Source: an uncultured Chloroflexia bacterium (GTDB lineage Bacteria > Chloroflexota > Limnocylindria > Limnocylindrales > CSP1-4). Taken from it: 64,000 nt of DNA. This document shows, piece after piece, positions 13,366 to 31,227 of the stretch. Positions within the stretch are counted from its first letter, which is position 1, and every line of letters starts with the position of its first letter. The stretch covers positions 613,708 to 677,707 of the forward strand of contig CAVTMH010000003.1 of NCBI GenBank assembly GCA_963735785.1. The letters run 5' to 3'. Below the pieces are notes generated by a model that saw nothing but the letters and a program-made list of their open reading frames with translations, was not told the DNA's origin and made no database searches. The translations under genes and the position numbers were made by a program.

Positions 13366-13497
13366 GGGGTCCATCCGGGGCATGGACAGATGACGATGGT
13401 GTTTCGGCAACGGACGACGGTGGTCGCCGAACCCCGTTGGGGCGATGCTCCTGTTGCGCACCGGATGGACCGGGACGCAGAAAGGAGCGATCAAGCA

Positions 13498-13707
13498 ATG
13501 AACTCGTATTCGATCCTCATCGTCAACGAGCACATCCAGTATCTGCTCGACGAGGCGGCGGCTCACCGCGCGGCCAAGGTCGAGAAGCCCGGACTGTTCG
13601 AGCGGATCGCTTCCGCTGCATCCTCGGTCAAGGCGGCGATCGACGCCCCTGCCGACTACAGCCGCTCGATCCTTCCGCCGCTCCACGACTATCCGTACCG
13701 GAGCTGA
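13498..13707 (+). CDS. Hypothetical small protein (69 aa)
   Basis: ATG preceded by AAAGGAG. MNSYSILIVNEHIQYLLDEAAAHRAAKVEK…. No recognised family. Confidence 0.4.
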   Translation: MNSYSILIVNEHIQYLLDEAAAHRAAKVEKPGLFERIASAASSVKAAIDAPADYSRSILPPLHDYPYRS

Positions 13708-14131: not shown

Positions 14132-14722
14132 CTACGCTGGCTCCAGGTCCCCTGGCGTGTCGATGTCGTGGAGCGTCGCCGCGCCGGGATCGTCGCGCCG
14201 CCATGACGCCTCTGGGACGACGTGCGCGGCAAGGGCCTCGGGCAGGGCGCGAAACCGCCGCTCACCCCTATCCAGAAGCTCCCGCGCGGCCACCTCGCCG
14301 CGCCGGCGATCCAGCGCGAGCGGCAACGGCTGCGGGTCGCCCTCGCTCCCCAGGACCGCGGCCGCGTGTCCCGAAACGATCGCCCCCACCAGGCGCTCGA
14401 GCACCGCCGGCACGAGCGACGGCATGTCCCCAGCGACGACCATCACCCGCTCGATCCCTGGATCGAGGGCCGCGAGACCCGCCACGACGCCCACGAGCGG
14501 GCCGTCGAAGGCCGCGGGATCGTGGGCGATGCGGACGCCGTCGGGCACCGTCGGCTCGACGCCCGGACCGGTGACGACGACGACGTCTGTCGCCACGACA
14601 CACACCGCGGCGATGGCGTGATCGAGTAGCGGTCGGCCGTCGATCAACTCGGCCAACTTGTCCCGACCAAACCTCGTCGAGCGGCCCCCCGCGAGCACGA
14701 TCGCCCCAGTCCGCTCGGTCAC
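14132..14722 (-). CDS. mobA: Molybdenum cofactor guanylyltransferase
   Basis: [23 protein letters not shown]…VVAGDMP motifs. GTG start overlaps the selB stop (GTGA). The longer track ORF (to 15007) is an N-terminal extension overlapping selB. Confidence 0.8.
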   Translation of the reverse strand: MTERTGAIVLAGGRSTRFGRDKLAELIDGRPLLDHAIAAVCVVATDVVVVTGPGVEPTVPDGVRIAHDPAAFDGPLVGVVAGLAALDPGIERVMVVAGDMPSLVPAVLERLVGAIVSGHAAAVLGSEGDPQPLPLALDRRRGEVAARELLDRGERRFRALPEALAAHVVPEASWRRDDPGAATLHDIDTPGDLEPA

Positions 14723-16506
14723 GGCACGGCCTCGGTCCGGCGTGGAGCCCTCGAGCCGGGAACATGGCCGTTTGGCGTGCGTCGCAGGATGGCCCGCCGG
14801 TCGAGGTCCTCCAGGATCGCCAGCACGTACTTGCGGCTGGTGCCGGTCGCGTCGCGGTAGGCCGCCGGTGTCAGGGGCTCGCGGGCGGCCATCGAGAGCG
14901 CCGTGGCCGTGAGATCTCGGTATGCGGACATCTCGTATGCGAGATCCGGCTCCAGGACGACGATCCGAGCGGCCCGCTCCAGCGCCCGAACCCCAGCCGG
15001 CGGGCACCCCGCGACCCGGGCGGCATCGGCGAGCGGGGGTGGGGCCGGGACCGCAAGCAGTGCCTCGAGGCGGTCCATGGCCGCGGCCAGTCCGGGGTCG
15101 ACGATCCTCCCCGCAGATCCTGGGTGGCGGAGGGTGTCGCCGTCCCGGACGAGGCGGCCGTCCGCCACCAGGCCCTCGATCACCGGCCCTGCCGCCGCCA
15201 AGGCCCGGTCTCGGCGGATGGTCACAGCGCGACGGAGCGTGGCTGCCACGACCGAGCGCACCTGGCCGAGCGTCGCCTCGTCCTTGACGACGGTGAGCGC
15301 ACCGGCCGCCGCCAGCTCGCGAACGTCGGGGGCGAGGACGGTCCGGCCCCCGTCGGCGATGGCGCCATGCAACGCGAGCCGCGCGCCGGGGTCGCGACCC
15401 GCCGCCGCGAGCATCGCGACACGCGCCGCCGTCTGACGCCGCCGCGAGATCCCCCGCGGGGGCGCCACGTCCAGGACGACCCCGCCGACGGGGAGCACCG
15501 CCGAGCCCCGTCGCAGGACGAAGCGATCACCGGGAGCCAGGGCGATGGGCGCGCCGAGTCGGACGATCCCGGCGGGCGTCCCGTCCGGCAGCTCCAGGGC
15601 GTCGCGCCCGGCCCGACCGACCGAGGCTTCCGCAGCGGCCGTGCCCGCGTGGAACCTGGCGCGGGTTCGGTCCGCGAGCGGCCCGCCGAACGCGACGAGT
15701 GCCCGGTCCGTGGCATGCACGAGCGGATCGTTGGTGAGCGCCAATCCCCGATGCAGCTCCCCGATATCGACACCGGCGAGGTTCAGCGCCGTGCGCCCGC
15801 CTCCCTGGACGCGATCGACGGCCCCGCCGTGGACCTGGATCTCGCGGATCCGGACGACCCGGTCGCCGGGGACCAGTCGAAGCGTGTCGCCACGGTCGAG
15901 CGAGCCGCCCCGGAGGGTGCCGGTGACGACAGCGCCACGGCCCTTCAGCGAGAACACCCGGTCGATGGCAAGCGTCGGCGGGCGTGCGGGCGGCCGATGC
16001 CCGGCGACCAGCGCCAGGATCGCGGCACGGACGGCGTCCACGCCTTCCCCGGTCAGAGCGGAGGCGGCGAGGACCGGGGAGCCGGCAAGGGACGTCGGCG
16101 CGAGGAGGTCGGCCACGGCCGCGACGACGGCAGCGACCCGCTCCGGATCAACGGCGTCGATCTTGGTGACGACCGCGAGACCGAAGCCGACGCCGAGGGC
16201 ATCGAGCAGCGCCAGGTGCTCGAGCGTCTGTGCGCGAGGGCCATCGTCGGCGGCCACGACGAGCATCACCGCGTCGATCTCGCCGGCGCCGACGAGCATG
16301 TTCCCGACCAGCTTGTCGTGGCCCGGCACGTCGACGAAGTCGATCGCCTGTCCGTCGTCGAGCGTGAGATGCGCGTAGCCGACGTCGATGGTCATCCCGC
16401 GCCGGCGCTCCTCCGGCAACCGGTCAGCGTCGATCCCGGTCAGTGCTTGCAGCAGCGTGGTCTTGCCGTGGTCGATATGGCCCGCGGTGCCGACGACGAT
16501 GGTCAC
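14719..16506 (-). CDS. selB: Selenocysteine-specific translation elongation factor
   Basis: G-domain [11 protein letters not shown]…DVPGH…TKID. Long C-terminal winged-helix extension. Position is between selA and mobA. Confidence 0.85.
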
Positions 16507-17885
16507 GCCGCGCCGCCGAGCACCCGCTCGATCGTCCGCGCGAGGGCGTCATCCGACTGCGGATCGACGGTTCGGAGGTCCAGCACGACCCGCCCATCCT
16601 CGATCCGGCCGATCACAGGCGGATCCTCGCGCCGGAGAGCGGCGAGCACACCCACGGCTGAGGGCCCGCTCAGGCGCAGCCCGACCGACGGCAGGGTCTC
16701 CCCGGGCAGCGAGCCCCCTCCGACGGTCGATCGCAGGTCGACCATCTCGACCGCGCCGCCGACGCGCGCGCAAAGCCGTTCAGCCCGCTCGCGGAGCGCG
16801 TCCGGTGTCGTCGCGATCATCTGCCAGACCGGGATGTCCGTCGTGGCGCGGCCGGCCCGATAGAGCCCGAGGGTCAACGCCACACCGGCCATCGTCACCT
16901 TGTCCGGTCGCATCGCCCGGGCGAGTGGATCGCGTCGCATCCTGGCGACGAGGGTCGAGCGGCCCACCACGAGGCCCGCCTGTGGCCCGCCGACCAGCTT
17001 GTCGCCGCTGAACGTGACGACATCGGAGCCGGCGCCCAGACGCTCGGACGGCATAGGCTCGTGGGCGAGGCCGAAGGCCGTCGTGTCGAGCAGCGCCCCG
17101 GAGCCCAGGTCGTCGATGACGATGGCGTCGTGACGGTGCGCGAGGTCGGCGACGGCAGCCGGGTCGGGGCTCTCGGTGAAGCCGGACATCGTGAAATTGG
17201 ACTGGTGGACGCGAAGTACGGCGCGGGCACGGCCCTCCGCGAGCGGCGCCTCGAAGTCGTCGGCGCGGGTCCGATTGGTCGTCCCGACCTCGATCAGCTT
17301 CGCACCGGCGCGACGCACGATATCCGGGATCCGCACGCCGCCGCCGATCTCGACGAGCTCCCCGCGCGAGACGACCACGCCCCCGCGACCCGCCAGACCC
17401 ACGGCGAGGGCGAGCGCCGCCGCGTTGTTGTTCGTGACGAGGGCATCCTCGGCGCCGGTCAGCGCGACGAGGTGGTCCTCGGCGATGCGTGCCCGCGCCC
17501 CGCGCCGACCCGTTTCGCGGTCGAGCTCGAGCAGCATCGCCTGTGTCGCCAGCGCGGCGGCCGACTCCGCGGCGGCGGGCGGCCAGGGCGCGCGACCCAG
17601 GTTCGTGTGGACGATGACGCCCGTCGCGTTGATGACGGCTGGCGGCGCCGCACCGACCTGCCCGGCGAATGCGTCGAGTCGATCCAGCACCGAGGTGGCC
17701 AAGCGGTCCAGGTCCGGCGGCACCGAGCCGTCCGAGCGCAGGCGTTCGCGCTCGGCATTCACGACCTCTCGCGCCACGGCGACGACCGCCCCGGCCTCTC
17801 GCGGACCCGGCAGCCGATCGCGCACGCGCGCGAGCACGTGCTCGACGCTGGGCGGGCGCGGCCGGGCGGCCGGCTTCGACGACAT
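16503..17885 (-). CDS. selA: L-seryl-tRNA(Sec) selenium transferase
   Basis: SelA signatures including [17 protein letters not shown] and [13 protein letters not shown] (PLP lysine). ATG at 17885 lies 20 nt downstream of tRNA-Sec. The track ORF extension to 17984 overlaps the tRNA and is rejected. Confidence 0.85.
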
Positions 17886-17905
17886 CGTTCCTCCATCGCG
17901 ACGCG

Positions 17906-18002
17906 TGGCGGGAGCGCGTGGGAGTCGAACCCACCGAGCCACGCCGAGCGCGGCGCCACCGGTTTTGAAGACCGGGGGACCCACCGGGACCCCTCCGCTC
18001 CC
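17906..18002 (-). tRNA. selC: tRNA-Sec (anticodon UCA)
   Basis: Reverse strand reads GGGAGCGGAGGGGTCCCGGTGGGTCCCCCGGTCTTCAAAACCGG…GGTTCGACTCCCACGCGCTCCCGCCA. It has a long acceptor stem, anticodon loop CU-UCA-AA, long variable arm, T-arm GGTTCGACTCC and encoded CCA. Confidence 0.85.
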
Positions 18003-18066
18003 ACGCTCGATGGTAGCGCGGGCGCGGCCGACGGCCCGCGGCCGACGGCGGACCTATCATCGCGGC

Positions 18067-19128
18067 ATGACCACGCTCGACGCCGCGCCGCCGCTTCGCC
18101 TGACCACGATGACCGGCTGCGGCGGATGTGCGGCGAAGCTCGGGGCGGACCTGCTGGCGGACGCCTTGTCCGGCCTTCGCGCGGAGGCAGCGGGGGTCGA
18201 TGCGGACGGCGCGCTCATCGCCGGCCTCGCGCCGCCCGACGATGGCGTGGCCTATCGGGTCAGCGACGACCTCGCGATCATCGGCACGCTCGACTTCTTT
18301 CCGCCGCTCGTCGACGATCCTCGGACGTTCGGGGAGATCGCCGCGGCCAACGCCCTGAGCGACGTGTTCGCGATGGGCGGCCGGGTGCTGTTCGCCCTGT
18401 CGATCGCGGCATTCCCCGAGGAGCTGCCGCGGGACGTGCTGGCCGCGATCTTCGACGGGGCGTCATCGAAGGTCCGCGAAGCCGGGGGCACGCTGGCCGG
18501 CGGTCATACGATCCGCGACCCGGAGCCCAAGTACGGACTCGCGGTCGTCGGGGCAGCGCACCCGGACAAGCTCCTGCGCAAGGGAGGCGCGGTGCCGGGT
18601 GACGTCCTCGTGCTCACGAAGCGGCTCGGGACCGGGGTCCTCGTCTCGGGCTCGCGGCAGGGCCGGACGAGTGCCGCGGATCTGGTGACGGCCATCGACG
18701 GGATGCGGACGCTCAACCGGGCGGCCTCGGAGGTATTCGTCGCGGCAGGCATCCGAGGGGCCACCGACGTCACGGGCTTCGGCCTGCTCGGGCACGGCCT
18801 CGAGATGGCCCGGACGTCGGACACCCGGTTCGTCTTCGACGCGGATTCCCTGCCGGCACTGCCGGGTGCGCTGGAACTGGCCGCGGCCGGCGTGGAGACC
18901 GGCGGGGCGGCGCACAACCGGCGCTTTGTGGCGGCGGCCCTGGAGGTCGCGCACGAGGTGAACCCGGCGCTGGTCACGTTGGCGCACGATCCGCAGACGA
19001 GCGGCGGGCTGCTCGCGGCCGTCGCGGCTGATCGGCACGAGACCGTGGACCTCGCGCTCGCGGATGCCGGTATCGAGCGGCACTGGATCGGACGGGTCGA
19101 CGCCGGCGCGGGCGTCGCACTGCGGTGA
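18067..19128 (+). CDS. selD: Selenide, water dikinase (Cys-type)
   Basis: MTTLDAAPPLRLTTMTGCGGCAAK (Cys at the catalytic position) and a downstream AIR-synthase-like fold (GGHTIRDPEPKYGLAVVG). The track ORF starting at 17176 is a spurious extension across tRNA-Sec. Confidence 0.85.
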   Translation: MTTLDAAPPLRLTTMTGCGGCAAKLGADLLADALSGLRAEAAGVDADGALIAGLAPPDDGVAYRVSDDLAIIGTLDFFPPLVDDPRTFGEIAAANALSDVFAMGGRVLFALSIAAFPEELPRDVLAAIFDGASSKVREAGGTLAGGHTIRDPEPKYGLAVVGAAHPDKLLRKGGAVPGDVLVLTKRLGTGVLVSGSRQGRTSAADLVTAIDGMRTLNRAASEVFVAAGIRGATDVTGFGLLGHGLEMARTSDTRFVFDADSLPALPGALELAAAGVETGGAAHNRRFVAAALEVAHEVNPALVTLAHDPQTSGGLLAAVAADRHETVDLALADAGIERHWIGRVDAGAGVALR

Positions 19129-19925
19129 CGACCCCGAACAGCTCGCCTGTCCACGTCGAGCGCGTCGGTTCTGGGCCGCGAGTCATCCTCGTTCACGGCA
19201 GCATGCGGCACGGCTCCGTGTCGTTCGAGCCGCTACGTGTGTTGGCCGATCAGTACACCCTCGAATTCGTCGATCGGCGCGGATTCGGCCAAAGCATCCT
19301 GCGCGAGCATGGCGTCGACTTCGACCTCGACGCCGAGGACATTGCCGGATTGCTCGGCGACGGAGCGCACCTCATCGGTCACTCGTACGGTGGTGTCGTC
19401 GCGATCCTGGCCACCGCCCGACGCCCAGATGCCGTCCGGTCGCTCACCGTGATCGAGCCACCGTTCTTTGCCCTCGCCGCAGACCATCCGGCCGTTCGGA
19501 CGTTGCGAGAGCGCCTGGCCGACCTGTTCCCCGCTCCGACCGACATGGGACCCGGGCGCTGGCTCTCGATGTTCGCCGGTGGGCTCGGAAGCCGGGTGCC
19601 GCCAGAGCTGCCGTTCGGTGCGGACGAGGTCGCCGACATCCGCGCTTCGATGACGGAGCGCCCTCCGTGGGAGGCGTCCGTGGATCTCGCCTCGATCCGC
19701 TCGGCCGGGGTGCCGACGCTCGTGATCCGCGGGGACTGGTCAACCGACCCGCCGGCAGCGGCCATCGGCGGCGCGGCCTTCGGGGCGATCGCGGATGTGT
19801 TGGTGCGGGAGCTTGCGGCGACCAGTCTCGTCGCTCCCGGCGCGACGCACCGGCCGCAACTGGACCGCGCAGACCTGGTGGTGCCGCACGTCCGGGCCTT
19901 CCTGGATGCGGCGCGCGCTGGGTAG
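19125..19925 (+). CDS. Alpha/beta hydrolase
   Basis: VILVHGS…GHSYGG nucleophile elbow. GTG start overlaps the selD stop. Confidence 0.7.
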   Translation: MTTPNSSPVHVERVGSGPRVILVHGSMRHGSVSFEPLRVLADQYTLEFVDRRGFGQSILREHGVDFDLDAEDIAGLLGDGAHLIGHSYGGVVAILATARRPDAVRSLTVIEPPFFALAADHPAVRTLRERLADLFPAPTDMGPGRWLSMFAGGLGSRVPPELPFGADEVADIRASMTERPPWEASVDLASIRSAGVPTLVIRGDWSTDPPAAAIGGAAFGAIADVLVRELAATSLVAPGATHRPQLDRADLVVPHVRAFLDAARAG

Positions 19926-19984
19926 CTCCCGCACGGCCACCCGGCGCTACACTCCGTGGTAAACCCCCGCAGGAGGCCACCTGA

Positions 19985-21898
19985 GTGGCGAAACCCTACG
20001 TTCGACTGACCCAGCCGCTCGTGCGTGACACGAAGGGCGGCGAGCTGCGTCCCGCGACCTGGGACGAGGCGCTCGATCGCGTGGTCGAAGGGTTCGCGGC
20101 CGCCAAGGCGGCCCACGGCCCGACGACCTTCGGCACCTTCAGCTGCAGCAAGGCGACCAACGAGGTCAACTTCGCGGCCCAGAAGTTCAGCCGAGCGGTC
20201 CTGGGCAGCAACAACATCGACAGCTGCAACCGGACCTGACACGCCCCGAGCGTCGCCGGTCTGGCGACCGTGTTCGGTGCCGGTGGCGGCACAAGTTCAT
20301 ATCGTGAGGCAGAGGACACCGATCTGATCGTCCTGTGGGGCAGCAACGCCCGCGAGACGCATCCGATCTTCTTCCATCACGTCCTCAAGGCCGTCCACAA
20401 GGGCGCCCGCCTCTATGCGATCGATCCACGGCGGACGTCCAGCGCGGAGTGGGCCGACAGCTGGCTCGGGCTCGATGTCGGGTCGGACATCGCCCTCGCG
20501 AACGCCATGGCCCGCGAGATCATCGCCGCCGGCCTCGAGAACCGCGACTTCATCGAGCGAGCGACGGTCGACTTCGACGCCTACAAGGCCAAGGTCGAGA
20601 GCTACACGCTCGAATACGCGGAGGGGGAGACCGGCGTCCCGGCCGAGGCCATCCGGGAGCTCGCCCACGCCTTCGCACAGGCGCCGCGCGCGATGATCTG
20701 CTGGACCCTGGGGATCACCGAGCACCACAATGCGGTCGACAACGTCCTCGCGCTCATCTCGCTGGTCCTCCTGACCGGGCATGTCGGGCGCTACGGCAGC
20801 GGCGTCAATCCGTTGCGTGGCCAGAACAACGTCCAGGGTGGCGGCGACATGGGCGCTCTGCCGGACCGGCTGCCCGGGTTCCAGCACGTCGAGAACGACG
20901 AGCTGCGGGCCAAGTTCGATGCGGCCTGGGGGGTCAAGGTCCCGCCTCAACGCGGCTGGCACCTGTCGGGGATGTTCGACGCGATGGAGCGCGGCGACCT
21001 GACCGCTGTCTACTGCATCGGGGAGAACCCGGTCCAGTCGGAGGCGGACCAGAAACGCGCGATCCGCCTGCTCGAGGGGCTCGAGCTGCTCGTCGTGCAG
21101 GACCTGTTCCTGACCAGGACCGCCGAGCTCGCCGACGTCGTGCTGCCGGCCAGCGCGGCCTGGGCCGAAGGGGAAGGCACCGTCACCAACTCCGAGCGCC
21201 GCGTGCAGCGGGTGCGCGCGGCCGTTGCTCCGCCGCCGGGCGCCCGAGACGACCTGGCGATCATCTTCGAGCTCGCCAACCGCATGGGCGCCGACTGGGG
21301 CGAGGCGAACGCCGAGGGGGTCTGGGACGAGGTCCGCAGCCTCTCGCCGGTCCACGCCGGGATGAGCTACCGCCGCCTCGAGGAGCTCGGCGGGATCCAG
21401 TGGCCGTGTTACGACGACGACCACCCGGGCGAGCTGTTCCTGCATTCGCGGCTCTGGGAGGATCCGGTCCCGGGCAATCGCGTCCCGTTCGTGCCGGTCG
21501 ACCACGACCCACCGGTCGACAAGCTCACGACCGAATACCCCATCCGGCTCACGACCGGCCGGCGGCTGGACTCGTACAACACCGGCGTCCAGAGCGCCGG
21601 CTACACGTCGCCGCTGCGTCGTGGCGAGTCGCTCGACATCTCGCCGGAGGACCTGGCCTCCTACGGCCTGGCCGACGGGGAGCGGGTCCGCGTCATCTCG
21701 CGCCGTGGCGAGGTGGAGGTGCCGGTACGGCTCGATGGATCGCTGCGACCCGGGCTGACGTTCATGACCCTGCACTTCCAGGACGACGTGGCGACGAACC
21801 TCCTGACGATCGATGCGACCGACCCGAAGTCGGGCACGGCCGAATTCAAGGCCACGGCCATCCGGATCGAGAAGCTCGGGGCGCCTGTCCCGGCCTGA
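19985..21898 (+). CDS. fdhA: Formate dehydrogenase catalytic (molybdopterin, MopB) subunit, selenocysteine-containing, lacking the N-terminal [4Fe-4S] domain
   Basis: Track ORFs 19985..20239 and 20270..21898 are in the same frame, separated only by TGA at 20237-20239. Across the TGA the protein reads …NIDSCNRT-U-HAPSVAGLATVFGAGGG…, the canonical FdhF/FdnG C-x-R-x-U-H Sec motif. The remainder is a MopB domain. The protein begins at the equivalent of FdhF residue ~60, so the CxxCxxxC cluster domain is absent. Confidence 0.8.
20247..20275 (+). promoter_or_regulatory. SECIS-like hairpin immediately 3' of the UGA-Sec codon
   Basis: 12 nt after TGA: GTCGCC-GGTCT-GGCGAC (20252-20268). A 6-bp GC stem with apical loop GGUCU. 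As I recall the E. coli fdhF SECIS, its apical loop is GGUC-containing as well. Confidence 0.6.
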
Positions 21899-21909
21899 GG
21901 AGGATCACG

Positions 21910-22851
21910 ATGGCGACGGCACTGTCGGCGTTCCACGTAACCCGCGAGCAGTTCCACCTCGCGTGGGATCCGGCGATCCCCCCGATCGCCACGGTCGTCT
22001 CGGGCAGCACGGTCACGTTCGACTGCCTCGACGCGAGCGGCGGGCAGCTGACGGCGACATCGACACTCGACGACCTCGCCCGCCTCGACTTCGATCGCGT
22101 CGACCAGGTGAACGGGCCCATCGCGGTCGAGGGCGCCGAGACCGGCGACACCCTGCAGGTCGACCTGCTGGACTTCCGACCCGCCGATTGGGGCTGGACA
22201 GCGAGTATCCCTGGGTTCGGACTGCTCGCCGACGAATTCCCGGATCCCGCGCTGCGCATCACGCCGCTGCCGTCGGTGGGCAGCCGCGCCGAGTTCCTGC
22301 CGGGCATCCGGCTGCCGATCATCCCGTTCTGCGGCGAGGTCGGTGTGGCGCCGGCAGACGGGCCGCGCTCCACGATCCCACCGGACGTCCATGGCGGGAA
22401 CATGGACACCCGCCACCTGACCGCGGGCGCTACGTTGTTCCTGCCGGTATTCCACGACGGCGCGCGCCTGAGCGTCGGAGATGGCCACGCCGCGCAGGGC
22501 GACGGCGAGGTGTGCGGGACGGCGATCGAGACCCCGATGCACGCGACGCTCCGGCTGACCGTCCGCAAGGACCTGCACCTGACGGCGCCCGAGTTCCTGA
22601 CGGCACCCGGAGACGCGGCCGAGCGCCCCGTCGGCCGACGGTACGCGACCGACGGGGTCGGGCCCGACCTGATGACGGCGGCTCGGGATGCCACCCGCCG
22701 GATGATCGACTGGCTCGGCCGTGAGCACGGCCTCGCGCCGATCGATGCCTACCTGCTGTCCAGCGTCGCCGTCGATCTACGGATCAGCGAGATCGTGGAC
22801 ATGCCGAATGTCATCGTCACCGCCCACTGTCCGCTGGCGATCTTCGACTGA
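21910..22851 (+). CDS. Formamidase / acetamidase family amidohydrolase (FmdA_AmdA)
   Basis: ATG 9 nt after GAGGAGG. Sequence (…GPIAVEGAETGDTLQVDLLD…HGGNMDTRHLTAGATLFLPV…GDGHAAQGDGEV…) resembles the acetamidase/formamidase family as I recall it. The 838-aa track ORF 20335..22851 is an alternate-frame artefact. Confidence 0.7.
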   Translation: MATALSAFHVTREQFHLAWDPAIPPIATVVSGSTVTFDCLDASGGQLTATSTLDDLARLDFDRVDQVNGPIAVEGAETGDTLQVDLLDFRPADWGWTASIPGFGLLADEFPDPALRITPLPSVGSRAEFLPGIRLPIIPFCGEVGVAPADGPRSTIPPDVHGGNMDTRHLTAGATLFLPVFHDGARLSVGDGHAAQGDGEVCGTAIETPMHATLRLTVRKDLHLTAPEFLTAPGDAAERPVGRRYATDGVGPDLMTAARDATRRMIDWLGREHGLAPIDAYLLSSVAVDLRISEIVDMPNVIVTAHCPLAIFD

Positions 22852-22861
22852 TCCTCGCGGA

Positions 22862-24337
22862 TCAGCCGTCAGTCATCACGTCGCCGACACGCGTCAGGGC
22901 GTCCGGGGTCCGGCTCCTGACCACGAAGTAGGCGACGACCCCGATGATCATCCAGATCAGGACGAGCAGCGGGACGATGTCGAAGGGCTGGGCGAGCGGA
23001 TCGAGATCGATGTCGAGGATCGGGATCGTCAGGCCGCCGAGGACGCCGAGGAACGCGGGGATCAGCAGCACGATGCCGAGGATGGGTACCACGAGGTGCT
23101 TGATGGGCGAGAAGTCCTCCCTCCGTTCGCCCATGTAGAACCCGATGACTGCGAGGTTGACCGCGACGTACATGCCGGCAAACAGCAGGCCGAGGGCATA
23201 CCCGATCCAGACGTAGGTCGTGAGCGGGCCACCCAGCGGCTGGCCCTGGAAGACGAGCCCGAGTACGACCGCAAGCCCGATTCCGAGGATGCCCTGGAAA
23301 TGGACGGCATTCATCGGCGTCCGGTAGGTCTCATGGATGACGGCGAACCAGCGCGGCAGCAGGCGCACGCGGCCCAGGGAGAAGATCACCCGGGTCGAGG
23401 CGTTCGCACCGGCGCTTGCGTTGGCGAGGCAGCTGTTGAGGATCGCGAAGATCACGAGCAGTCCGCCGATGCCGGGCAGGACCTCGTTCGCCATCCCGCT
23501 CCAGGGATCGCCATCGTTGAACGCGAGGAAGTCGCCCATCCGTTCCGGTCCGAAGTAGACGGTCGCCGCGTACATGTTGAACGCGTAGAACAGGCCGATG
23601 AGGACCGCCGACAGGAGGACCGCCCGACGGATGGTGCGCTTCGGGTCGCGGGTCTCCTCGGCCAGCGGTGCCGCTGCCTCGAAGCCGACAAAGGCGAGCA
23701 GGCAGAACACCATGCCCTGCAACGCGGGCTTGAAACCGTCCGCGCCCGGGGTGAACACCGAGAGCGTGTTCCTGTCGCCGGCATTCACGATGAGCAGGAA
23801 CGACACCAGCAGGAAGATGCCGATCTCGATCAGGCCGAGGGCGACGCCCACACGCGTCGACAGTGAGATGCCGCGATACACGAGCCACCACACGAGCAGG
23901 CCGCAGCCGACCGCGAGCGGCAGCCACAACAGGTCGTTCGAGAACCCCGTCAGCGTCGTGATCAGGGATGCGCCGAACAACCCGAACGCCGCGAACAGTG
24001 CCGCCGGGACGACGGGCTCGGCGAGCAGGAACGCCCACGCCATCAGCCATCCCGCGAACGAACCGAGACCGCGGGCAACGTACGTGTACATGCCACCCGC
24101 CGATGGCAGGTAGCGCGCAAGCTCCCCGATCGAATAGGCCGTGAACACGGCCGCGACGAGGGCGAGCACGACGGCGAGGGGCGCGTTGCCGGCGGCGAAG
24201 ATCGTGGCGGCCCCGATCGAGAGGGCCGTCGCGACCGCCGGCGCCATGTGCGTGATCGACTGGAACAGGACCTCGGTGAGGCCGATGGCCCCACGTTCGA
24301 GGGTTTGACCGCCAGGGTCGGACGCAGACGAGGACAT
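22862..24337 (-). CDS. APC superfamily amino acid/amide permease
   Basis: 12 predicted TM helices. Start MSSSASDPGG at 24337 is preceded by GGAGGAG. Confidence 0.75.
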   Translation of the reverse strand: MSSSASDPGGQTLERGAIGLTEVLFQSITHMAPAVATALSIGAATIFAAGNAPLAVVLALVAAVFTAYSIGELARYLPSAGGMYTYVARGLGSFAGWLMAWAFLLAEPVVPAALFAAFGLFGASLITTLTGFSNDLLWLPLAVGCGLLVWWLVYRGISLSTRVGVALGLIEIGIFLLVSFLLIVNAGDRNTLSVFTPGADGFKPALQGMVFCLLAFVGFEAAAPLAEETRDPKRTIRRAVLLSAVLIGLFYAFNMYAATVYFGPERMGDFLAFNDGDPWSGMANEVLPGIGGLLVIFAILNSCLANASAGANASTRVIFSLGRVRLLPRWFAVIHETYRTPMNAVHFQGILGIGLAVVLGLVFQGQPLGGPLTTYVWIGYALGLLFAGMYVAVNLAVIGFYMGERREDFSPIKHLVVPILGIVLLIPAFLGVLGGLTIPILDIDLDPLAQPFDIVPLLVLIWMIIGVVAYFVVRSRTPDALTRVGDVMTDG

Positions 24338-24500
24338 GACTCCTCCCTCTCCACCGGCGTGCACCGCGCGGCCACCCCTCCGCCCTCCGGGCACGCGTCA
24401 GGTGCATCCTACGGCGCAACCGAGTCACTGGAGCTGCGGAATCGCAGCGAACCGACGGGCAGGCGTAGAGTCTGTCGGGCCACGCGAAGAGAGGTCGCTG

Positions 24501-25358
24501 ATGGGATCCGAGGCGCGACCAGGATCGACGGTCGACGGGTCGACGGCGCAGGACGACGCCGCGCCGGACGAGGCGCCGGGCCTGGCCGCGCCGATCGTTT
24601 CGGATCCGCAGTGGCGGGCCATCCTGGAGGGCACCGCCGGCGGGTTCGGCTCCGGACGGCGGATCCTTCGACACATCCCGAGCTCACCGCGCTGCAAGCT
24701 CTGTGCGGCGCCCTTCGCCGGGCTCGGGGGGCGGGCGATGCGGCTGATCGATCGCGGCCCCTGGGAAAAGAATCCGACCATCTGCGGCTTCTGCTTCAAG
24801 GAGCTGGAGCGCGACCGCGGCGGCGCCGAGATCACCCTCACGCTGCTGTTCGCCGATATCCGTGGCTCGACGACGCTGGCTGAATCGATGGAGCCGGGGG
24901 CCTTCCACGGGCTGATGGGCCGCTTCTACCACGAGGTGACCGAGGTCCTCGTCGCGCACGATGCCGTCGTCGACAAGTTCGTCGGTGACGAGGTCGTGGC
25001 CCTCTTCATCCCCGCCCTCACCGGGGAAGGGCACGCCGGTCGCGCGGTGCAGGCCGCGCGCGAGCTGCTCCGGGTGACGGGTCATGCCGGTCCCGGGAAT
25101 CCATGGGCCCCGCTCGGGATCGGCATCCACACGGGTCAGGCCTATGTCGGTACGATCGGCGATGCCGTGACCGACTTCACCGCGCTCGGCGACACCGTGA
25201 ACGTCACCGCGAGACTGGCCTCGGCCGCCGCCGCGGGCGAGATCCTTGTCAGCGCCGACGCGTCGGCGCTCGCGGGCCTCGAATCCGATCTCGAAGCACG
25301 CAACCTGACCCTTCGGGGGCGACAGCAACCGCTCGACGTCCGCGTCATCCGAATCTGA
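24501..25358 (+). CDS. Adenylate/guanylate cyclase (class III) domain protein with N-terminal Cys4 zinc-ribbon-like motif
   Basis: C-terminal LTLLFADIRGSTTLAE…FVGDEVVALF…TGQAYVGTIGD cyclase motifs. N-terminal CKLC…CGFC. Confidence 0.7.
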   Translation: MGSEARPGSTVDGSTAQDDAAPDEAPGLAAPIVSDPQWRAILEGTAGGFGSGRRILRHIPSSPRCKLCAAPFAGLGGRAMRLIDRGPWEKNPTICGFCFKELERDRGGAEITLTLLFADIRGSTTLAESMEPGAFHGLMGRFYHEVTEVLVAHDAVVDKFVGDEVVALFIPALTGEGHAGRAVQAARELLRVTGHAGPGNPWAPLGIGIHTGQAYVGTIGDAVTDFTALGDTVNVTARLASAAAAGEILVSADASALAGLESDLEARNLTLRGRQQPLDVRVIRI

Positions 25359-25388
25359 CGCGGGCCCGCATCGCTACACTCGACGGCG

Positions 25389-27236
25389 ATGGACCTGCAT
25401 GTCATCGGGCCGCTCGCCTCCCCCGCCGAGCGCGCAGCGGTCGATGCCGTCCTCGGGCCTCCGGAGTCGGGCTGGGTCGGTGGTGCTCGACGACCGGGGA
25501 TCGATGGCCACGCTGCCCGCGGCGGCCACGCCCTCCGGGCCAGGCGTTCACAGCTGCTGCCGGCCCTCCACGCCGTCCAGGACCGGATCGGCTGGATCAG
25601 CCAGCCCGCGCTCAACTACATCTCGCGGCGTCTGGCCGTGCCACCCGCGGAGGCGTACGGCGTCGCGACGTTCTACGCCCTGTACTCGACGACGCCCAGG
25701 CCGCCGGTCGTCGCCCATGTCTGCGACGACATCGCCTGCCGGCTCGCCGGGGCGGAGCGGATCTGCGCGGACGTCGAGCGTTCGGTCGGGCGGGCAGATG
25801 AGGCCGCACGTGACGGCGAGGTCGGCTGGCTTCGCTCGCCGTGCCTGGGACTGTGCGACTTGGCCCCCGCGGCGATGATCACCAGGGCTGGGGACACGGC
25901 TACAGCGGTGACCGCGGCGCCCGTGGACGCGGCGGGGATCGTCGCACGTCTCGACGGGACCACGGTCACGCGTCCGGCCGTGCCGGCACGGCAGGCCGGC
26001 GACCCGTCGCTCCGGCTGCTCCGGCGAGTCGGCGTCGTCGACCCATCGTCTCTCGATGACTACCGTTCCGGCGGCGGCTATGCCGGCCTTGCCAGGGCCA
26101 TCGAGATCGGAGCGGACGCGGTCATCGGCGAGGTGACGGCGTCGAAGCTCATGGGTCGCGGCGGCGCGGCCTTCCCGACAGGCCGCAAGTGGGCGGCTGT
26201 CGCATCCCAGCCCGCCCGGCCGCACTACCTCGTCTGCAACGCCGACGAATCGGAACCTGGCACCTTCAAGGACCGGGTCCTCCTCGAGGGCGACCCATTC
26301 GCGATCGTGGAGGCGATGACGATCGCCGCGTTCGCGACCGGCGCGGCGCAGGGATACATCTACATCCGCGGGGAGTACCCCGAGGCCGAGGAACGCATGA
26401 GCAACGCGATCTCGACCGCGCGGGACGCCGGTCTCCTTGGACCCGACATCCACGGGTCAGGGTTCGCGTTCGACATCGAATTGCGACGTGGCGCCGGGGC
26501 CTACATCTGCGGCGAGGAGACGGCGCTCTTCGAATCGATCGAGGGCAAGCGCGGCGAGCCGCGCAACAAGCCACCGTTCCCGGTCGAGGTCGGGCTCTTC
26601 GGCAAGCCCACGGTCGTCAACAACGTCGAGACGCTCGCCAACATCCCGCTCATCCTCGAGATGGGTGGCGAGGCCTATGCACGGATCGGCACGGAGGACT
26701 CGACCGGGCCGCGGCTGTTCTGCCTGTCCGGCCACGTCGAGCGGCCCGGCGTCTACGAGGTCGAGTTCGGCGCGACCCTGCGCGACCTCATCGAGCTCGC
26801 CGGTGGCGTGAGCGGTGGTCGCGGCATCCGGGCGATCCTGCTCGGCGGGGCGGCCGGGGTCTTCGTCGGGCCGGACGCCCTCGACATGCCCCTCACGTTC
26901 GAGGCGACCCGGGCCGCCGGCGCGACGCTCGGGTCGGGCGTGATCATGGTCTTCGACGAGAGCGTCGACCTCGTCGACACGCTCCGGCGCATCGCCCAGT
27001 TCTTCCGCGACGAGTCGTGCGGCCAGTGCGTGCCCTGTCGGGTCGGGAGCGTGCGCCAGGAAGAGTTGCTCGCCCGTCTCGCGGCCGGCTCGGGTGTGCG
27101 GTCGCGGGACGAGGAGATGGTCCTGCTCCGGGACATCGGCCAGGTCATGCGTGACGCATCGATCTGTGGCCTCGGCCAGACGGCGTCGTCGGCGATCGAG
27201 TCCGCTCTGCGGCAGCCGGAGCTGGTGGCGCTGTGA
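25389..27236 (+). CDS. NADH:quinone oxidoreductase subunits E+F fused (NuoE-like [2Fe-2S] thioredoxin-like domain + NuoF-like NAD/FMN/[4Fe-4S] domain); likely diaphorase module of an NAD-linked formate dehydrogenase
   Basis: N-terminal LLPALHAVQDRIGWISQPALNYISRRLAVPPAEAYGVATFYALY…HVCDDIAC (NuoE/HoxF-N). C-terminal GRGGAAFPTGRKW…LVCNADESEPGTFKDR…ESCGQCVPCR…ICGLGQTA (NuoF). Confidence 0.8.
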   Translation: MDLHVIGPLASPAERAAVDAVLGPPESGWVGGARRPGIDGHAARGGHALRARRSQLLPALHAVQDRIGWISQPALNYISRRLAVPPAEAYGVATFYALYSTTPRPPVVAHVCDDIACRLAGAERICADVERSVGRADEAARDGEVGWLRSPCLGLCDLAPAAMITRAGDTATAVTAAPVDAAGIVARLDGTTVTRPAVPARQAGDPSLRLLRRVGVVDPSSLDDYRSGGGYAGLARAIEIGADAVIGEVTASKLMGRGGAAFPTGRKWAAVASQPARPHYLVCNADESEPGTFKDRVLLEGDPFAIVEAMTIAAFATGAAQGYIYIRGEYPEAEERMSNAISTARDAGLLGPDIHGSGFAFDIELRRGAGAYICGEETALFESIEGKRGEPRNKPPFPVEVGLFGKPTVVNNVETLANIPLILEMGGEAYARIGTEDSTGPRLFCLSGHVERPGVYEVEFGATLRDLIELAGGVSGGRGIRAILLGGAAGVFVGPDALDMPLTFEATRAAGATLGSGVIMVFDESVDLVDTLRRIAQFFRDESCGQCVPCRVGSVRQEELLARLAAGSGVRSRDEEMVLLRDIGQVMRDASICGLGQTASSAIESALRQPELVAL

Positions 27237-28333
27237 GCGAGGACACGCGGGGCCTGTCCATGAGCCGCGACCCCGCTCCGGACCCACACACCCCGCACGG
27301 CGGCCAGGCGCCGGCCGCCCAACCGCTGACGGAGATCATCCTGCGCCCGCCCGCGCGGCCGTCGCGCCCGCCAGCGCCACCGCACGTCGACGCGCCGCCG
27401 GACATCGAGCTCTCGATCGACGGCGTCTCGGTGGTCGTCCCCGAAGGCACGACGATCCTAGGCGCGTGCCGACAGCAGGGTGTCGACACGCCGACGCTCT
27501 GCTACGCGGACAACCTCGCGCCGGTCAACGTCTGCCGCGTCTGTGTCGTCGAGGTGACCGGGTCACGCGTCCTGGTGCCCGCCTGCTCGCGCAAGGTCGA
27601 GGCCGGGATGGAGGTGCAGACCGACTCGGAGCGCGTCCGCCTGTCGCGCAAGGTCGTGCTCGAGTTCCTGGGCTCCTCGGTCGACGTGTCGCTCGCTGGT
27701 CCCGCGGTGCCGGACGGGACGATCCACTCGTACATGCGGCGGTACGGCGCGGACCCGGCCCGGTATGGGCCGCCGGCCCCACCAGCCGCAGCCGGCGAGC
27801 GGGACGACCGGACTCCCGGACACCATCACGTCCCCGAGGGAGCCGCCGTGGCTGCCACCGTCGCCCAGCCCACCAAGATCGACAACGACCTGTACGTCCG
27901 CGACTACTCGAAGTGCATCCTCTGCTACAAGTGCGTCGAGGCGTGCGGTGAGGATGCCCAGAACACCTTTGCGATCGCGGTCGCCGGGCGCGGCTTCGAT
28001 GCCCGTATCTCGACCGAGCAGGCCGTGCCATTGCCCGAGTCGGCGTGCGTCTACTGCGGCAACTGCATCGGCGTGTGCCCGACCGGCGCGCTGATGGCCA
28101 AGCCCGAATACGACATGCGCGAGGCGGGCACGTGGGACGAGTCGACCCAGACCGTGACCTCGACCATCTGCCCGTACTGTGGCGTCGGGTGCGTGCTGGA
28201 CCTCCACGTCCAGGACGACCGCATCCTGAAGGTGACGTCCCCGCTGGACTCGTCCGTGACGGACGGCCACCTCTGCGTGAAGGGCCGCTTCGGCTTCGAG
28301 TTCGTGAACGAGCGCCCCAAGCCCGGGGCCTGA
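27233..28333 (+). CDS. NuoG-N-terminal-like Fe-S protein ([2Fe-2S] ferredoxin + 2x[4Fe-4S] + MopB-type N-terminal [4Fe-4S] domain) without molybdopterin domain; probable Fe-S partner of the split fdhA
   Basis: GTG overlaps the preceding stop (GTGA). CYADNLAPVNVCRVCVVEV…C (2Fe-2S). CILCYKCVEAC and CVYCGNCIGVCP (ferredoxin clusters). C-terminal CPYCGVGCVLDLHV…GHLCVKGRFGFEFVN is the equivalent of the first ~55 residues of FdhF/FdsA missing from fdhA. Ends directly after this domain. Confidence 0.75.
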   Translation: MSEDTRGLSMSRDPAPDPHTPHGGQAPAAQPLTEIILRPPARPSRPPAPPHVDAPPDIELSIDGVSVVVPEGTTILGACRQQGVDTPTLCYADNLAPVNVCRVCVVEVTGSRVLVPACSRKVEAGMEVQTDSERVRLSRKVVLEFLGSSVDVSLAGPAVPDGTIHSYMRRYGADPARYGPPAPPAAAGERDDRTPGHHHVPEGAAVAATVAQPTKIDNDLYVRDYSKCILCYKCVEACGEDAQNTFAIAVAGRGFDARISTEQAVPLPESACVYCGNCIGVCPTGALMAKPEYDMREAGTWDESTQTVTSTICPYCGVGCVLDLHVQDDRILKVTSPLDSSVTDGHLCVKGRFGFEFVNERPKPGA

Positions 28334-28342
28334 TCCGCGGGT

Positions 28343-29209
28343 TCAGCTCCAGCCGGTCAGGTCGTGCAGGTCGATCCGGCGGTCGTGGCTGTAGACGTTG
28401 AACCCGTCGCCGCGGAGGAAACCGACCAGCGTGACCCCGAGCCGCTCTGCGGTCTCGATCGCGAGGTCCGACGGGGCCGAAACGGCGCACACGATCGGGA
28501 CGCCGGCGACCGCCGCCTTCTGCACGATCTCGAAGCTGACCCTCCCTGAGACCATGAGGATCCGGTCGTGCAGCGGCAACGCGCCGGCGAACAGCTGCGA
28601 CCCGACCAGCTTGTCGAGCGCGTTGTGCCGCCCGACGTCCTCGCGGATCTCGATGAGTTCGCCGCGCGGGGTGAACAGCGCGGCGGCGTGGAGCCCACCA
28701 GTCTCGTCGAACGCCCGTTGTGCCACGCGCAGCAAGTCCGGCAGGGCCAGGACCACCGTCCGTGCGACGACCGGCCCATCCGGCAGCGGCTCGCAGCGCA
28801 CGGCGACCTCGTCGATCGACGCCTTGCCGCAGATCCCGCACGACGCCGTCGCCACGAAATGGCGCTCCGCCACCGAGGACGCGTCGAAGGGGCGCGTGAG
28901 GCGGACGACGATCGTGTCGTCCGGCTGGTTCAACGCGGCGGGATCGCCGCCCTCGGTCGAGGCCACGTCGTCGCGTCCGTCGATCAGGCCCTCCGTGCGC
29001 ATGAATCCGACCGCGAGCTCGGCCTCGTGACCAGGAGTCCGCATCGTCACCGCCACGGCCACGGGCTCCTCGTCCGGCCCGGCGGCCCGGATCTCGAGTG
29101 GCGCCTCCCCGACGATCCGGTCCGGACGGACTTCGAGCGTCTCCCCGCGCACGGTCACGACGGAGCGGGTGGCGATGTGGCGTGTCGGGGGAGCGCTCGT
29201 GTCGTGCAC
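28343..29209 (-). CDS. fdhD: Formate dehydrogenase accessory sulfurtransferase
   Basis: SCGICGKASIDE and GRHNALDKLVG FdhD signatures. Confidence 0.85.
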   Translation of the reverse strand: MHDTSAPPTRHIATRSVVTVRGETLEVRPDRIVGEAPLEIRAAGPDEEPVAVAVTMRTPGHEAELAVGFMRTEGLIDGRDDVASTEGGDPAALNQPDDTIVVRLTRPFDASSVAERHFVATASCGICGKASIDEVAVRCEPLPDGPVVARTVVLALPDLLRVAQRAFDETGGLHAAALFTPRGELIEIREDVGRHNALDKLVGSQLFAGALPLHDRILMVSGRVSFEIVQKAAVAGVPIVCAVSAPSDLAIETAERLGVTLVGFLRGDGFNVYSHDRRIDLHDLTGWS

Positions 29210-29719: not shown

Positions 29720-30961
29720 CTAGCGGTCGAGGAAGACGGCCTCGCCCATCGGTCGCAGGCAGTGCGTCGAGCTCATCGCCTGGAGATAGCCCCCCGCGTT
29801 GAGCAACGCGACCATGTCGCCCTCGCGGACCGGCGGCATCGGGTAGTCCTCGGCGAACACGTCGCTCGCTTCGTTGATGTGGCCCGCCACCGTGACGGTC
29901 TCGGTCCGCTCGGCCCCGGCATCGCGGCACAGGACGAGCTCCTGCGCAAAGCCGTAGATGAAGTACGCGCAGTTCACGTTCCAGCCGATGTCCAGGCCGA
30001 CGAAGGTGACCCCGCGCCGATCCTCGACCGTGACGACCTCGCCCAGCAGGATCGCCGCATCCTTCGAGAGGTGGTCCCCGGGTTCCGATGCGACGACGAC
30101 CCCCAACGGCTCGAGATGTCGGGCGACGATCGCGGCGTAGGCGTCGAGGTCGATCGCGGGCTCGTCGGCCCGAGCGGGCATGCCGAGTCCGCCGCCGACG
30201 TTGACCTCGATCACCTCGTGCCCGACGGCGCGTAACCGCTCGACGGCTGTCACCGCCGCCGGCAGCGCCCGCTCGAACGCGGGCAGCCCGTCCCGGAGCC
30301 AGCCGGATCCGGCGTGGAAATGGACCGTGTCGATCTGGAGCTCGTGACTGGCGGCCACGGCGATCGCTTCATCGAGTCGTTCGAGGCCGATCCCGAACTT
30401 GGTCGGCCGCTCGCCGCTGTATTCGAGATGGGCGTTGTACCCGGCGCCCGCCCCGGGATCGATGCGGATCCCGATCCGCGATCGCGGCGCTCGCCGGCCG
30501 TAGCGCTCGATCTGGCTGACGGCATCCAGGTTGCAGTGGATGCCATGCGCCAGCAGGACGTCGAGGTCCCGCTCGGACACGTTCGTGCCGGTATAGCTGA
30601 TCTCCCCGGGCGTCCAGCCGCACTCCAGCGCCCGCAGGACCTCACCGGGCGAGCAGGCATCGATCCCGACGCTCTCCGGTGTGCCGGGCGCGCCGAGGCC
30701 ACGGAACACCTCGAGGACCTCGGGCAGCGGATTTGCCTTGAGGGCGAACCGCAGTCGAAACGGTACGCCGGTCCGCGCGAAGGCCGACTGCAGCCGCCGG
30801 GCATGCTCGCCGAACCGAGGCCGGTCATAGACGAACAGCGGGGTCCCGTGCTCGCGGGCCAGCGCCTCGGCATCGACCCCGGCGATCCGCAAGCGCCCGT
30901 CGGGCGTCAGATCAAGGCCAGGACGGACCCACCAAGGGGCGGTCGTGGCCGGGCTGGTCAC
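29720..30961 (-). CDS. PLP-dependent decarboxylase, Orn/DAP/Arg decarboxylase family 2 (diaminopimelate decarboxylase-like)
   Basis: FALKANP (PLP lysine), HFHAGSG, EPGDHL, CAYFIY motifs typical of LysA/ODC fold. Confidence 0.75.
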   Translation of the reverse strand: MTSPATTAPWWVRPGLDLTPDGRLRIAGVDAEALAREHGTPLFVYDRPRFGEHARRLQSAFARTGVPFRLRFALKANPLPEVLEVFRGLGAPGTPESVGIDACSPGEVLRALECGWTPGEISYTGTNVSERDLDVLLAHGIHCNLDAVSQIERYGRRAPRSRIGIRIDPGAGAGYNAHLEYSGERPTKFGIGLERLDEAIAVAASHELQIDTVHFHAGSGWLRDGLPAFERALPAAVTAVERLRAVGHEVIEVNVGGGLGMPARADEPAIDLDAYAAIVARHLEPLGVVVASEPGDHLSKDAAILLGEVVTVEDRRGVTFVGLDIGWNVNCAYFIYGFAQELVLCRDAGAERTETVTVAGHINEASDVFAEDYPMPPVREGDMVALLNAGGYLQAMSSTHCLRPMGEAVFLDR

Positions 30962-31227
30962 GCCAGGACGCGCGGTCGCGAGCGGGCCTGTCCGCTCCCG
31001 GGGGTCCAGCGATTCGGACCCTCCTCCACGGGAACACCGATCGACTCGACCAGGTGACGGGATGCGTGCGCGATCTCAGCGATTGCGGCTTCGAACGCCT
31101 CCTGATTACGAGCACTCGGTTCACGATAGCCGCTGAGCTTGCGGACGTACTGGCGGGCGGCGGCCTCCAGTTCGCCCGTCGTCGCCGTTTCGCCCGGGCG
31201 ACGCAGGGTCTTGATGCTTCGGCACAT
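30958..31227 (-). CDS. DUF2277 domain protein
   Basis: MCRSIKTLRRPGETATTGELEAAARQYVRKLSGYREPSARNQEAFEAAIAEIAHASRHL matches the conserved DUF2277 N-terminus. ATG overlaps the upstream stop. The longer track ORF is an extension. Confidence 0.7.
   Translation of the reverse strand: MCRSIKTLRRPGETATTGELEAAARQYVRKLSGYREPSARNQEAFEAAIAEIAHASRHLVESIGVPVEEGPNRWTPGSGQARSRPRVLA

Follow-up and report, generated by a model that had tools for sequence, protein, structure and literature searches.

A conserved selenocysteine and formate dehydrogenase neighbourhood in a soil Limnocylindrales genome, with a formate dehydrogenase alpha subunit split between two genes

Results

Genes of the locus

The locus described here combines the genes for selenocysteine (Sec) insertion with those of a formate dehydrogenase (FDH), and occupies positions 14132-29209 of a 64,000-nt stretch of DNA from an uncultured Chloroflexia bacterium (contig CAVTMH010000003.1). 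The whole stretch is called the window, and coordinates refer to it unless a contig is given; the genome from which it comes (G000) has 3.1 Mb in 3 contigs and is 91.7% complete. The locus is a genuine, conserved Sec and FDH neighbourhood of a known kind, which serves at least two selenoproteins. The selC, selA, selB and mobA-like genes on the minus strand, the divergent selD, fdhA, the NuoE-NuoF (NuoEF) fusion, the NuoG-N-like gene and fdhD, all of which had been listed in an initial annotation made from the sequence alone, were found within the span as follows.

14132-14722, minus strand: mobA-like nucleoside triphosphate (NTP) transferase gene, 196 aa, GTG start (Pfam NTP_transf_3, 103 bits)
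14719-16506, minus strand: selB, Sec-specific elongation factor, 595 aa (TIGR00475, 296 bits against a cut-off of 242; Pfam GTP_EFTU and SelB-wing_3)
16503-17885, minus strand: selA, selenocysteine synthase, 460 aa (TIGR00474, 442 bits against a cut-off of 268)
17906-18002, minus strand: selC, tRNA-Sec (ARAGORN, anticodon TCA; Rfam RF01852, 68.3 bits against a gathering threshold of 47, E = 8e-12, full length)
18003-18066, no strand: divergent intergenic region of 64 bp between selC and selD, presumed site of promoters for both directions; no sigma-70-type consensus found in it
18067-19128, plus strand: selD, selenophosphate synthetase, 353 aa (TIGR00476, 330 bits against a cut-off of 125)
19985-21898, plus strand: C-terminal half of fdhA (fdhA_C), catalytic subunit with the Mo/W-bis(pyranopterin guanine dinucleotide) (bisPGD) site, 637 aa, Sec85 (Pfam Molybdopterin and Molydop_binding)
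25389-27236, plus strand: NuoE-NuoF (FdsG-FdsB-like) fusion, NAD(H)/flavin mononucleotide (FMN) diaphorase, 615 aa (Pfam 2Fe-2S_thioredx, Complex1_51K, SLBB and NADH_4Fe-4S)
27233-28333, plus strand: N-terminal half of fdhA (fdhA_N, NuoG-N-like), 366 aa (Pfam Fer2_4, Fer4, and Molybdop_Fe4S4 at residues 307-359)
28343-29209, minus strand: fdhD, FDH sulfurtransferase, 288 aa (NF001943, 271 bits against a cut-off of 269; Pfam FdhD-NarQ)

SelA, SelB and SelD all score above their NCBIfam cut-offs, and the tRNA-Sec passed the covariance-model check. The latter has the anticodon UCA, carries its CCA end encoded in the gene and stands 20 nt ahead of selA, whose start is an ATG at 17885 preceded by GGAGG. 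The minus-strand run from selC through selA and selB to mobA reads in the sequence as annotated, with GTGA start/stop overlaps between selA and selB (16503-16506) and between selB and the mobA-like gene (14719-14722). SelD is of the Cys type, as had been claimed: the N-terminal motif is GCGGCAAK (GGC-AAK), with Cys three residues before the conserved Lys, and the frame holds no TGA. The product of the last gene of the run is a member of the MobA-like NTP-transferase family, to which the name MobA is given by context, because mobA adjoins this type of FDH in many loci; a mobA-like gene also follows selB in three relatives (L015-L017).

A formate dehydrogenase alpha subunit carried by two genes

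The most distinctive aspect of the locus is the alpha subunit of the FDH, which on alignment to FdsA proves to be of that type, split and permuted in gene order. fdhA_C starts with a GTG at 19985, preceded by GGAGG, and aligns from residue 7 onward to residues 61-688 of Escherichia coli FDH-H and to residues 308-936 of Rhodobacter capsulatus FdsA; given where these alignments begin, the domain of the proximal 4Fe-4S cluster (FS0) is missing from it, and the FS0 domain thus does not share a chain with the domains that bind molybdopterin guanine dinucleotide (MGD). The match of the profile TIGR01591 to fdhA_C is confined to positions 53-672 (646 bits against a cut-off of 666), while its positions 1-52 lie on the protein encoded at 27233-28333, so that the model is divided exactly at 52/53 between the two proteins. 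fdhA_N contains a NuoG-like 2Fe-2S cluster domain, two 4Fe-4S clusters and then the Molybdop_Fe4S4 (FS0) domain, and stops 7 residues past the latter. It tiles FdsA residues 7-304, which together with the 308-936 of fdhA_C leaves neither gap nor overlap. The N-half ends in ...KGRFGFEFVNERPKPGA and the C-half begins with MAKPYVRLTQPLVRD; nothing has been lost or duplicated at the break. The initial annotation was right that fdhA bears a UGA with a selenocysteine insertion sequence (SECIS), but it overlooked the split: this gene encodes no more than the C-terminal part, 637 aa long, of an alpha subunit of the FdsA type. Likewise, the NuoG-N-like gene is present with its NuoG-type clusters, and in addition carries the missing Molybdop_Fe4S4 domain of that subunit.

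The cluster cysteines of fdhA_N are invariant (alignment A1), and the Mo-site motifs of fdhA_C, U85-H86 and LRGQNNVQGG, align to those of known FDHs. After FDH-H, we take the Sec/Cys with its neighbouring His and the arginine of RGQNNVQG to be the catalytic residues. fdhA_C is the sole PF00384 match of the genome. The NuoE- and NuoF-like subunits of an FdsABG-type enzyme, with their FMN/NADH site and clusters, are present as one 615-aa fusion, which scores above the NuoF cut-off (NF010120, 396 bits against 389); this diaphorase and fdhD, the latter above the NF001943 cut-off, are as first annotated. The start of fdhA_N overlaps the nuoEF stop by GTGA, and its end lies ten bases from fdhD, which is convergent on it and keeps this position in most loci of the family. 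In this genome fdhA_N is encoded 5.3 kb downstream of fdhA_C, and 3.5 kb of cargo separates fdhA_C from NuoEF.

The UGA codon of fdhA and its SECIS element

An in-frame UGA stands at 20237-20239 on the plus strand as codon 85 of fdhA_C, within CNRT-U-HAPSVAGL, and corresponds in alignment to the catalytic Cys of T. kivui FdhF. One TGA is found at this site in all orthologues of 59-91% identity, with coding conserved on both sides. The upper hairpin of a SECIS, GUCGCC-GGUCU-GGCGAC, lies at 20252-20268 (plus strand), with the stem 12 nt and the apical loop 18 nt after the UGA; it is invariant within the genus, while nearby synonymous sites vary. Among 55 distinct orthologous fdhA sequences from several phyla, all 330 of 330 cells of the stem are paired. 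The compensatory changes comprise a CG to GC exchange reached through two synonymous changes in 6 sequences and, at another stem pair, a series from CG through UG to UA, with UA in 3 sequences; none of 500 shuffles (0/500) reached the observed covariation. Single-sequence folds of the SECIS regions of fdhA and of the MerB-like gene described below are not significant against shuffles in this GC-rich DNA (z from -0.6 to -1.9, with -1.9 for a fold of the fdhA element), and the support for the SECIS elements comes from covariation and synonymous-site conservation, not from fold energy. The possibility that the fdhA TGA is a genuine stop, with its two sides expressed separately, runs against the retention of the UGA in orthologues down to 59% identity, the conserved flanking coding sequence and the covarying stem, and on this comparative evidence the UGA is assigned as a Sec codon. 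All members of the split clade that were examined have UGA, whereas fused relatives show a mix of Sec and Cys.

Conservation of the split and of the synteny with the sel genes

The order fdhA_C, nuoEF, fdhA_N is kept in 11 loci of the genus, the three genes being directly adjacent in one of them (G024). Within the family, 30 loci belonging to nine genera show the nuoEF-fdhA_N end; fdhD usually follows it in convergent orientation, and fdhA_C lies downstream in none of them. The full order is present in 8 loci of other Chloroflexota families at 60-73% identity. It is also complete in 61 of 80 named contigs of metagenome-assembled genomes (MAGs), labelled as Limnocylindrales, Chloroflexia, Actinomycetota, Acidobacteriota, Planctomycetota and Rokubacteria; the remaining 19 of the 80 are too short or contain an insert of more than 4 kb, and fdhA_C follows fdhA_N in none (0/80). 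A compact fdhD-fdhA_C-nuoEF-fdhA_N-mobA operon is typical of many contigs with the Actinomycetota label. In total, the breakpoint, the gene order and the UGA are common to more than 100 independent assemblies, whose proteins are 59-97% identical. Homologues of about 45% identity (L102, L103) have the canonical layout, in which nuoEF precedes a single fused alpha gene. A search of representative proteins with fdhA_N returned mostly metagenomic fragments, in which split genes and Sec-truncated fused genes are not separable. A search for homologous proteins gave at least 8000 close relatives, labelled simply Limnocylindrales/Chloroflexota. Because the same order recurs across the genus, the family and other phyla, the split is old and selected, and is no assembly error.

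The arrangement of selB-selA-selC, selD and FDH is found in all loci of the genus and in the Limnocylindrales contigs L108, L118, L124, L132 and L147, and sel genes adjoin FDH in other orientations in G409 and in one Actinomycetota-labelled contig. As to the distribution of the gene order, then, the Sec and FDH neighbourhood suggested by the initial annotation is conserved across the genus and the family. Among the loci sampled from other Chloroflexota families, the FDH has no sel gene within about 6-11 kb, and the pairing is therefore a lineage-specific synteny and not a travelling unit.

In four loci from few-contig MAGs (L021, L022, L023 and L024; genomes G012, G020 and G015), FDH, selD and fdhD occur in several frame-shifted pieces, which are likely to be indel errors of long-read assembly, not decay.

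A second selenoprotein candidate

The genome was scanned for UGA codons in two ways. One scan used a codon model trained on the genome to rate the coding potential on either side of every in-frame TGA; it gave 125 candidates, 57 once antisense shadows had been removed, and by inspection fdhA and a MerB-like gene remained. The other candidates proved on inspection to be adjacent in-frame genes or antisense shadows. The other scan began from the SECIS and searched downstream of TGA codons, at a distance of 14-24 nt, for a hairpin with a GGUC loop; fdhA came out at the top and the MerB-like gene next, both well ahead of the rest. Additional screens of the genome for redox motifs (C..U, U..C and similar) gave no credible protein, and no selU or yqeC homologue was found in it.

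Contig C1 of G000, 24995-25648 (L025, 5993-6649), minus strand: MerB-like gene (alkylmercury-lyase fold), 218 aa, with UGA as codon 147 inside the Pfam MerB domain

This gene has the Cys/Asp pair of MerB (C86, D89). In alignment its UGA falls on the second catalytic Cys of MerB2, and 16 further genomes of the genus retain it, at 60-93% identity. Downstream is the hairpin CUUCC-GGUC-GGAAG, whose loop lies 19 nt past the UGA; the stretch CUC-UUC-CGG-UCG-GAA is invariant at synonymous sites, the single change keeping the pairing. The protein has the motif T-U and scores well below the SaoL and MerB equivalog cut-offs (SaoL NF040728, 50 bits against 140). An EamA-type transporter gene follows it.

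The initial annotation had proposed that the fdhA UGA might be the only Sec codon served. This expectation did not survive the genome-wide check, in which two independent scans give two convincing candidates, and the label of a single-selenoprotein island falls with it, given the UGA and GGUC-loop hairpin of the MerB-like gene and their conservation in the 16 other genomes. On these sequence features, the genome is assigned at least two selenoproteins, with fdhA not the sole one.

A further TGA was noted at position 1626261 (plus strand) of contig C3, where a LuxR-type response regulator ends and is followed in frame by a multicopper-oxidase-like protein with a twin-arginine translocation (Tat) signal (RRGFLRAAAV). 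The 78 codons before and around this Tat signal contain no ATG, GTG or TTG.

Variable slots and neighbouring genes

Two slots of the locus, 19125-19925 and 21899-25388, were compared with the loci L014-L024. They contain four further genes, which the initial annotation does not list.

19125-19925, plus strand: alpha/beta hydrolase, 266 aa (Pfam Abhydrolase_6), whose start overlaps the selD stop (GTGA)
21910-22851, plus strand: amidase of the acetamidase/formamidase family, 313 aa (Pfam FmdA_AmdA, 215 bits)
22862-24394, minus strand: amino acid-polyamine-organocation (APC) permease (Pfam AA_permease)
24336-25358, plus strand: adenylate/guanylate-cyclase-domain protein (Pfam Guanylate_cyc)

The hydrolase between selD and fdhA_C had a tblastn match in this slot in 0 of the 11 genus loci, and in two relatives' loci scanned with Pfam the slot holds an extracytoplasmic function (ECF) sigma factor and an ABC1 kinase. 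Between fdhA_C and nuoEF, a major facilitator superfamily (MFS) transporter is found in G005 and nothing in G024; the amidase with its opposite-strand permease recurs in L023 (7617-8555) and L106 (1521-3986), and L015 is the one relative that has the cyclase-domain gene in this position. Mobile-element genes were noticed in neither slot. The amidase has a GGAGG of its own and begins 11 nt downstream of the fdhA stop; it scores far below the FmdA equivalog (NF045496, 151 bits against a cut-off of 500); its best match in the Protein Data Bank (PDB) is 2ii1, an 'acetamidase', and the nearest structures are uncharacterised. It is an attractive but speculative idea that it may supply formate to the FDH, from formamide or another amide through formate to CO2.

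Of the maturation of the molybdenum cofactor, the locus holds the last steps only, in the form of the mobA-like gene and fdhD. MoaC and MoeA are encoded on contig C2, and MoaE on C3, about 1 Mb away. With these genes elsewhere and four unrelated genes in the variable slots, the view of the initial annotation that the locus is self-contained, with everything needed at one place, was not sustained, nor is the locus compact.

GC content is about 70% all along the window and 0.68-0.74 in the locus, where GC and skew are like those of the flanks, with no compositional break. Beside fdhD lies an ornithine/diaminopimelate/arginine decarboxylase-family gene (29720-30961, minus strand), whose position is the same throughout the genus and in many contigs of Limnocylindrales; it has no apparent connection with FDH. 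The locus is further flanked by two open reading frames, at 11575-13686 (minus strand, 703 aa) and 31139-34459 (plus strand, 1106 aa), each with no Pfam match at E <= 0.001, and in DNA this rich in GC either could be a shadow frame.

Discussion

We propose that this neighbourhood is chromosomal and vertically inherited in soil Limnocylindrales (Chloroflexota), and that it places the Sec apparatus beside its main client, a three-gene, split, cytoplasmic NAD-type Sec/Mo FDH; taking the evidence together, we regard this as very probable. Several points weigh against it. A scan for promoters and terminators gave nothing above chance, and the lack of a sigma-70-type consensus says little in Chloroflexota. 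The two halves of the alpha subunit are separated here by 5.3 kb that include a minus-strand gene, and therefore share no transcript in this genome. The mobA-like gene is coupled to selB as annotated but falls below the MobA equivalog cut-off (TIGR02665, 72 bits against 152; MocA, 59 bits), so that the initial naming as mobA stood only in part. The counts of selenoproteins and Mo-enzymes are lower bounds in a genome of this completeness, and the taxon labels of the 80 MAG contigs may be unreliable.

The distance between the halves also bears on whether they are partners at all. It can be argued that NuoEF and fdhA_N form a stand-alone diaphorase or belong to another enzyme, and that fdhA_C is an FdhF-like protein with another carrier; the 5.3 kb and the opposite-strand gene between them would fit this, as would the likeness of the first 300 residues of fdhA_N to hydrogenase subunits of the HoxU/HndD type. 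However, fdhA_C is devoid of FS0, the very domain with which fdhA_N closes; the three genes are found together, side by side, wherever the locus is of sufficient length; and the genome encodes no other PF00384 protein that could take the orphan FS0 domain, all of which makes unrelated halves quite improbable. A closed unit in which the sel genes serve the fdhA UGA alone may also be considered: fdhA is indeed the only Mo-bisPGD enzyme of the genome, neither selU nor yqeC was found, and sel genes adjoin the FDH throughout the genus, but the MerB-like gene, with its conserved UGA, its GGUC-loop hairpin and its second rank in the SECIS-first scan, leaves such a single-selenoprotein selenium island very little room. 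The split and the UGA might finally be taken for artefact or decay, that is misassembly, pseudogene relics or a TGA that is a true stop, and the frameshifted gene pieces in several long-read MAGs of the genus (G012, G015, G020) could be cited in favour. This explanation is scarcely credible, since the same breakpoint, order and UGA occur in more than 100 independent assemblies with the cluster cysteines kept, the SECIS stem carries compensatory changes, and the proteome of a cultured actinobacterium contained all three subunits (PMC7176365).

It might also be supposed that the locus is a mobile selenium island, acquired recently and as a block by horizontal transfer. The presence of the split FDH operon in several phyla at 60-75% identity does suggest a past transfer of the three-gene core, and the adjoining slots carry variable cargo. 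Against a recent acquisition stand the GC content and skew, which match the flanks, and the order of selB-selA-selC, selD, FDH, fdhD and the decarboxylase gene, which the genus and much of the family have preserved, with a divergence that tracks the rest of the genome; no integrase, repeats or tRNA-end junction was noticed. Other Chloroflexota families have the FDH operon with no sel genes nearby, and the sel genes and the FDH have therefore not moved as one unit. A mobile island is accordingly a highly improbable account, and the vertically inherited neighbourhood is retained.

With the domain set at hand and by analogy with FDH3 of Actinomycetospora chiangmaiensis, the enzyme is expected to be a formate:NAD+ oxidoreductase. 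SelD would provide selenophosphate, SelA would convert Ser-tRNA-Sec, and SelB would read the GGUC-loop SECIS just past the UGA, while the mobA-like product and FdhD would finish the bis-MGD cofactor. Formate would then be oxidised at the Mo-Sec site of fdhA_C, which carries Sec85, the next His and two MGD-binding domains. Electrons would cross a protein-protein interface from fdhA_C to the FS0 cluster on fdhA_N and pass from FS0 along the Fe-S chain of fdhA_N to the FMN in NuoEF, where NAD+ would be reduced. In this scheme, the three-protein assembly, NAD+ as the acceptor, co-transcription and the link between amidase and formate are inferred.

It can also be hypothesised that the permutation is adaptive for selenium control. 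The UGA would then be codon 85 of the first cistron and not about codon 390 of the last, selenium supply, acting via SelB and the SECIS, could gate the output of the entire FDH operon early and cheaply, and the coupling of the mobA-like gene to selB would tune bis-MGD supply to Sec insertion. We consider this unlikely; the UGA found throughout the split clade is in line with it and may equally reflect shared ancestry.

The locus shows how selenium use is organised in a little-studied soil lineage, where Sec machinery, a cofactor-finishing gene and FDH have been held together in evolution while unrelated genes turn over in two slots. It is a clean and complete example of a widespread split FDH, in which the active site and the nearest Fe-S cluster lie on different proteins, and which gene callers truncate at the UGA. 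The presence of sel genes beside fdhA need not mean that FdhA is the only selenoprotein, and a second client such as the MerB-like protein would escape standard annotation.

Comparison with known systems

E. coli FdhF (FDH-H) has in common with the present system the Sec-His motif, a SECIS directly after the UGA and the four sel genes. The SECIS of E. coli fdhF also has a GGUC-type apical loop. In E. coli, however, the sel genes are scattered and not beside fdhF, and FdhF has its own FS0 domain and passes electrons to hydrogenase 3, not to NAD+.

Among MerB-like proteins, SaoL (NCBIfam NF040728) is an organometallic-lyase selenoprotein listed in PMC9312934 and PMC13188914. It unites the MerB fold with Sec, as does the candidate found here, but has the motif C-U (PMC13188914) in place of T-U, and the candidate is placed by its sequence on a branch of the MerB family separate from SaoL.

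The FdsABG(D) enzyme of R. capsulatus (PDB 6TG9/6TGA), an NAD+-dependent Mo-FDH, shares with the present enzyme the domain set, the order of cofactors, the NuoE- and NuoF-like subunits and a factor of the FdhD/FdsC type. Its FdsA is a single chain with an active-site Cys, whereas here the chain is cut after FS0 with the C-half encoded first, NuoE and NuoF are fused, and Sec is predicted at the active site; no counterpart of FdsD was noticed here.

The literature was searched for an FDH alpha subunit described as 'split', and nothing direct was found. The split form of the enzyme has nevertheless already been recorded in one paper, with no discussion of a fission (PMC7176365). In Actinomycetospora chiangmaiensis DSM 45062, FDH3 (FdhA3-FdhB3-FdhC3) is a cytoplasmic Sec-FDH of which all three subunits were present in the proteome; selenite was required for the removal of formate (Rohwerder et al, 2020; PMC7176365). 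Its subunits of 640, 614 and 316 aa resemble in size those of 637, 615 and 366 aa found here, and the paper does not treat FDH3 as having a split or permuted alpha subunit. The same organism has selA and selB inside another FDH cluster, FDH1 (PMC7176365). Compared with the compact fdhD-fdhA_C-nuoEF-fdhA_N-mobA order of actinobacterial loci, the locus described here is interrupted by cargo, and its mobA-like gene is coupled to selB.

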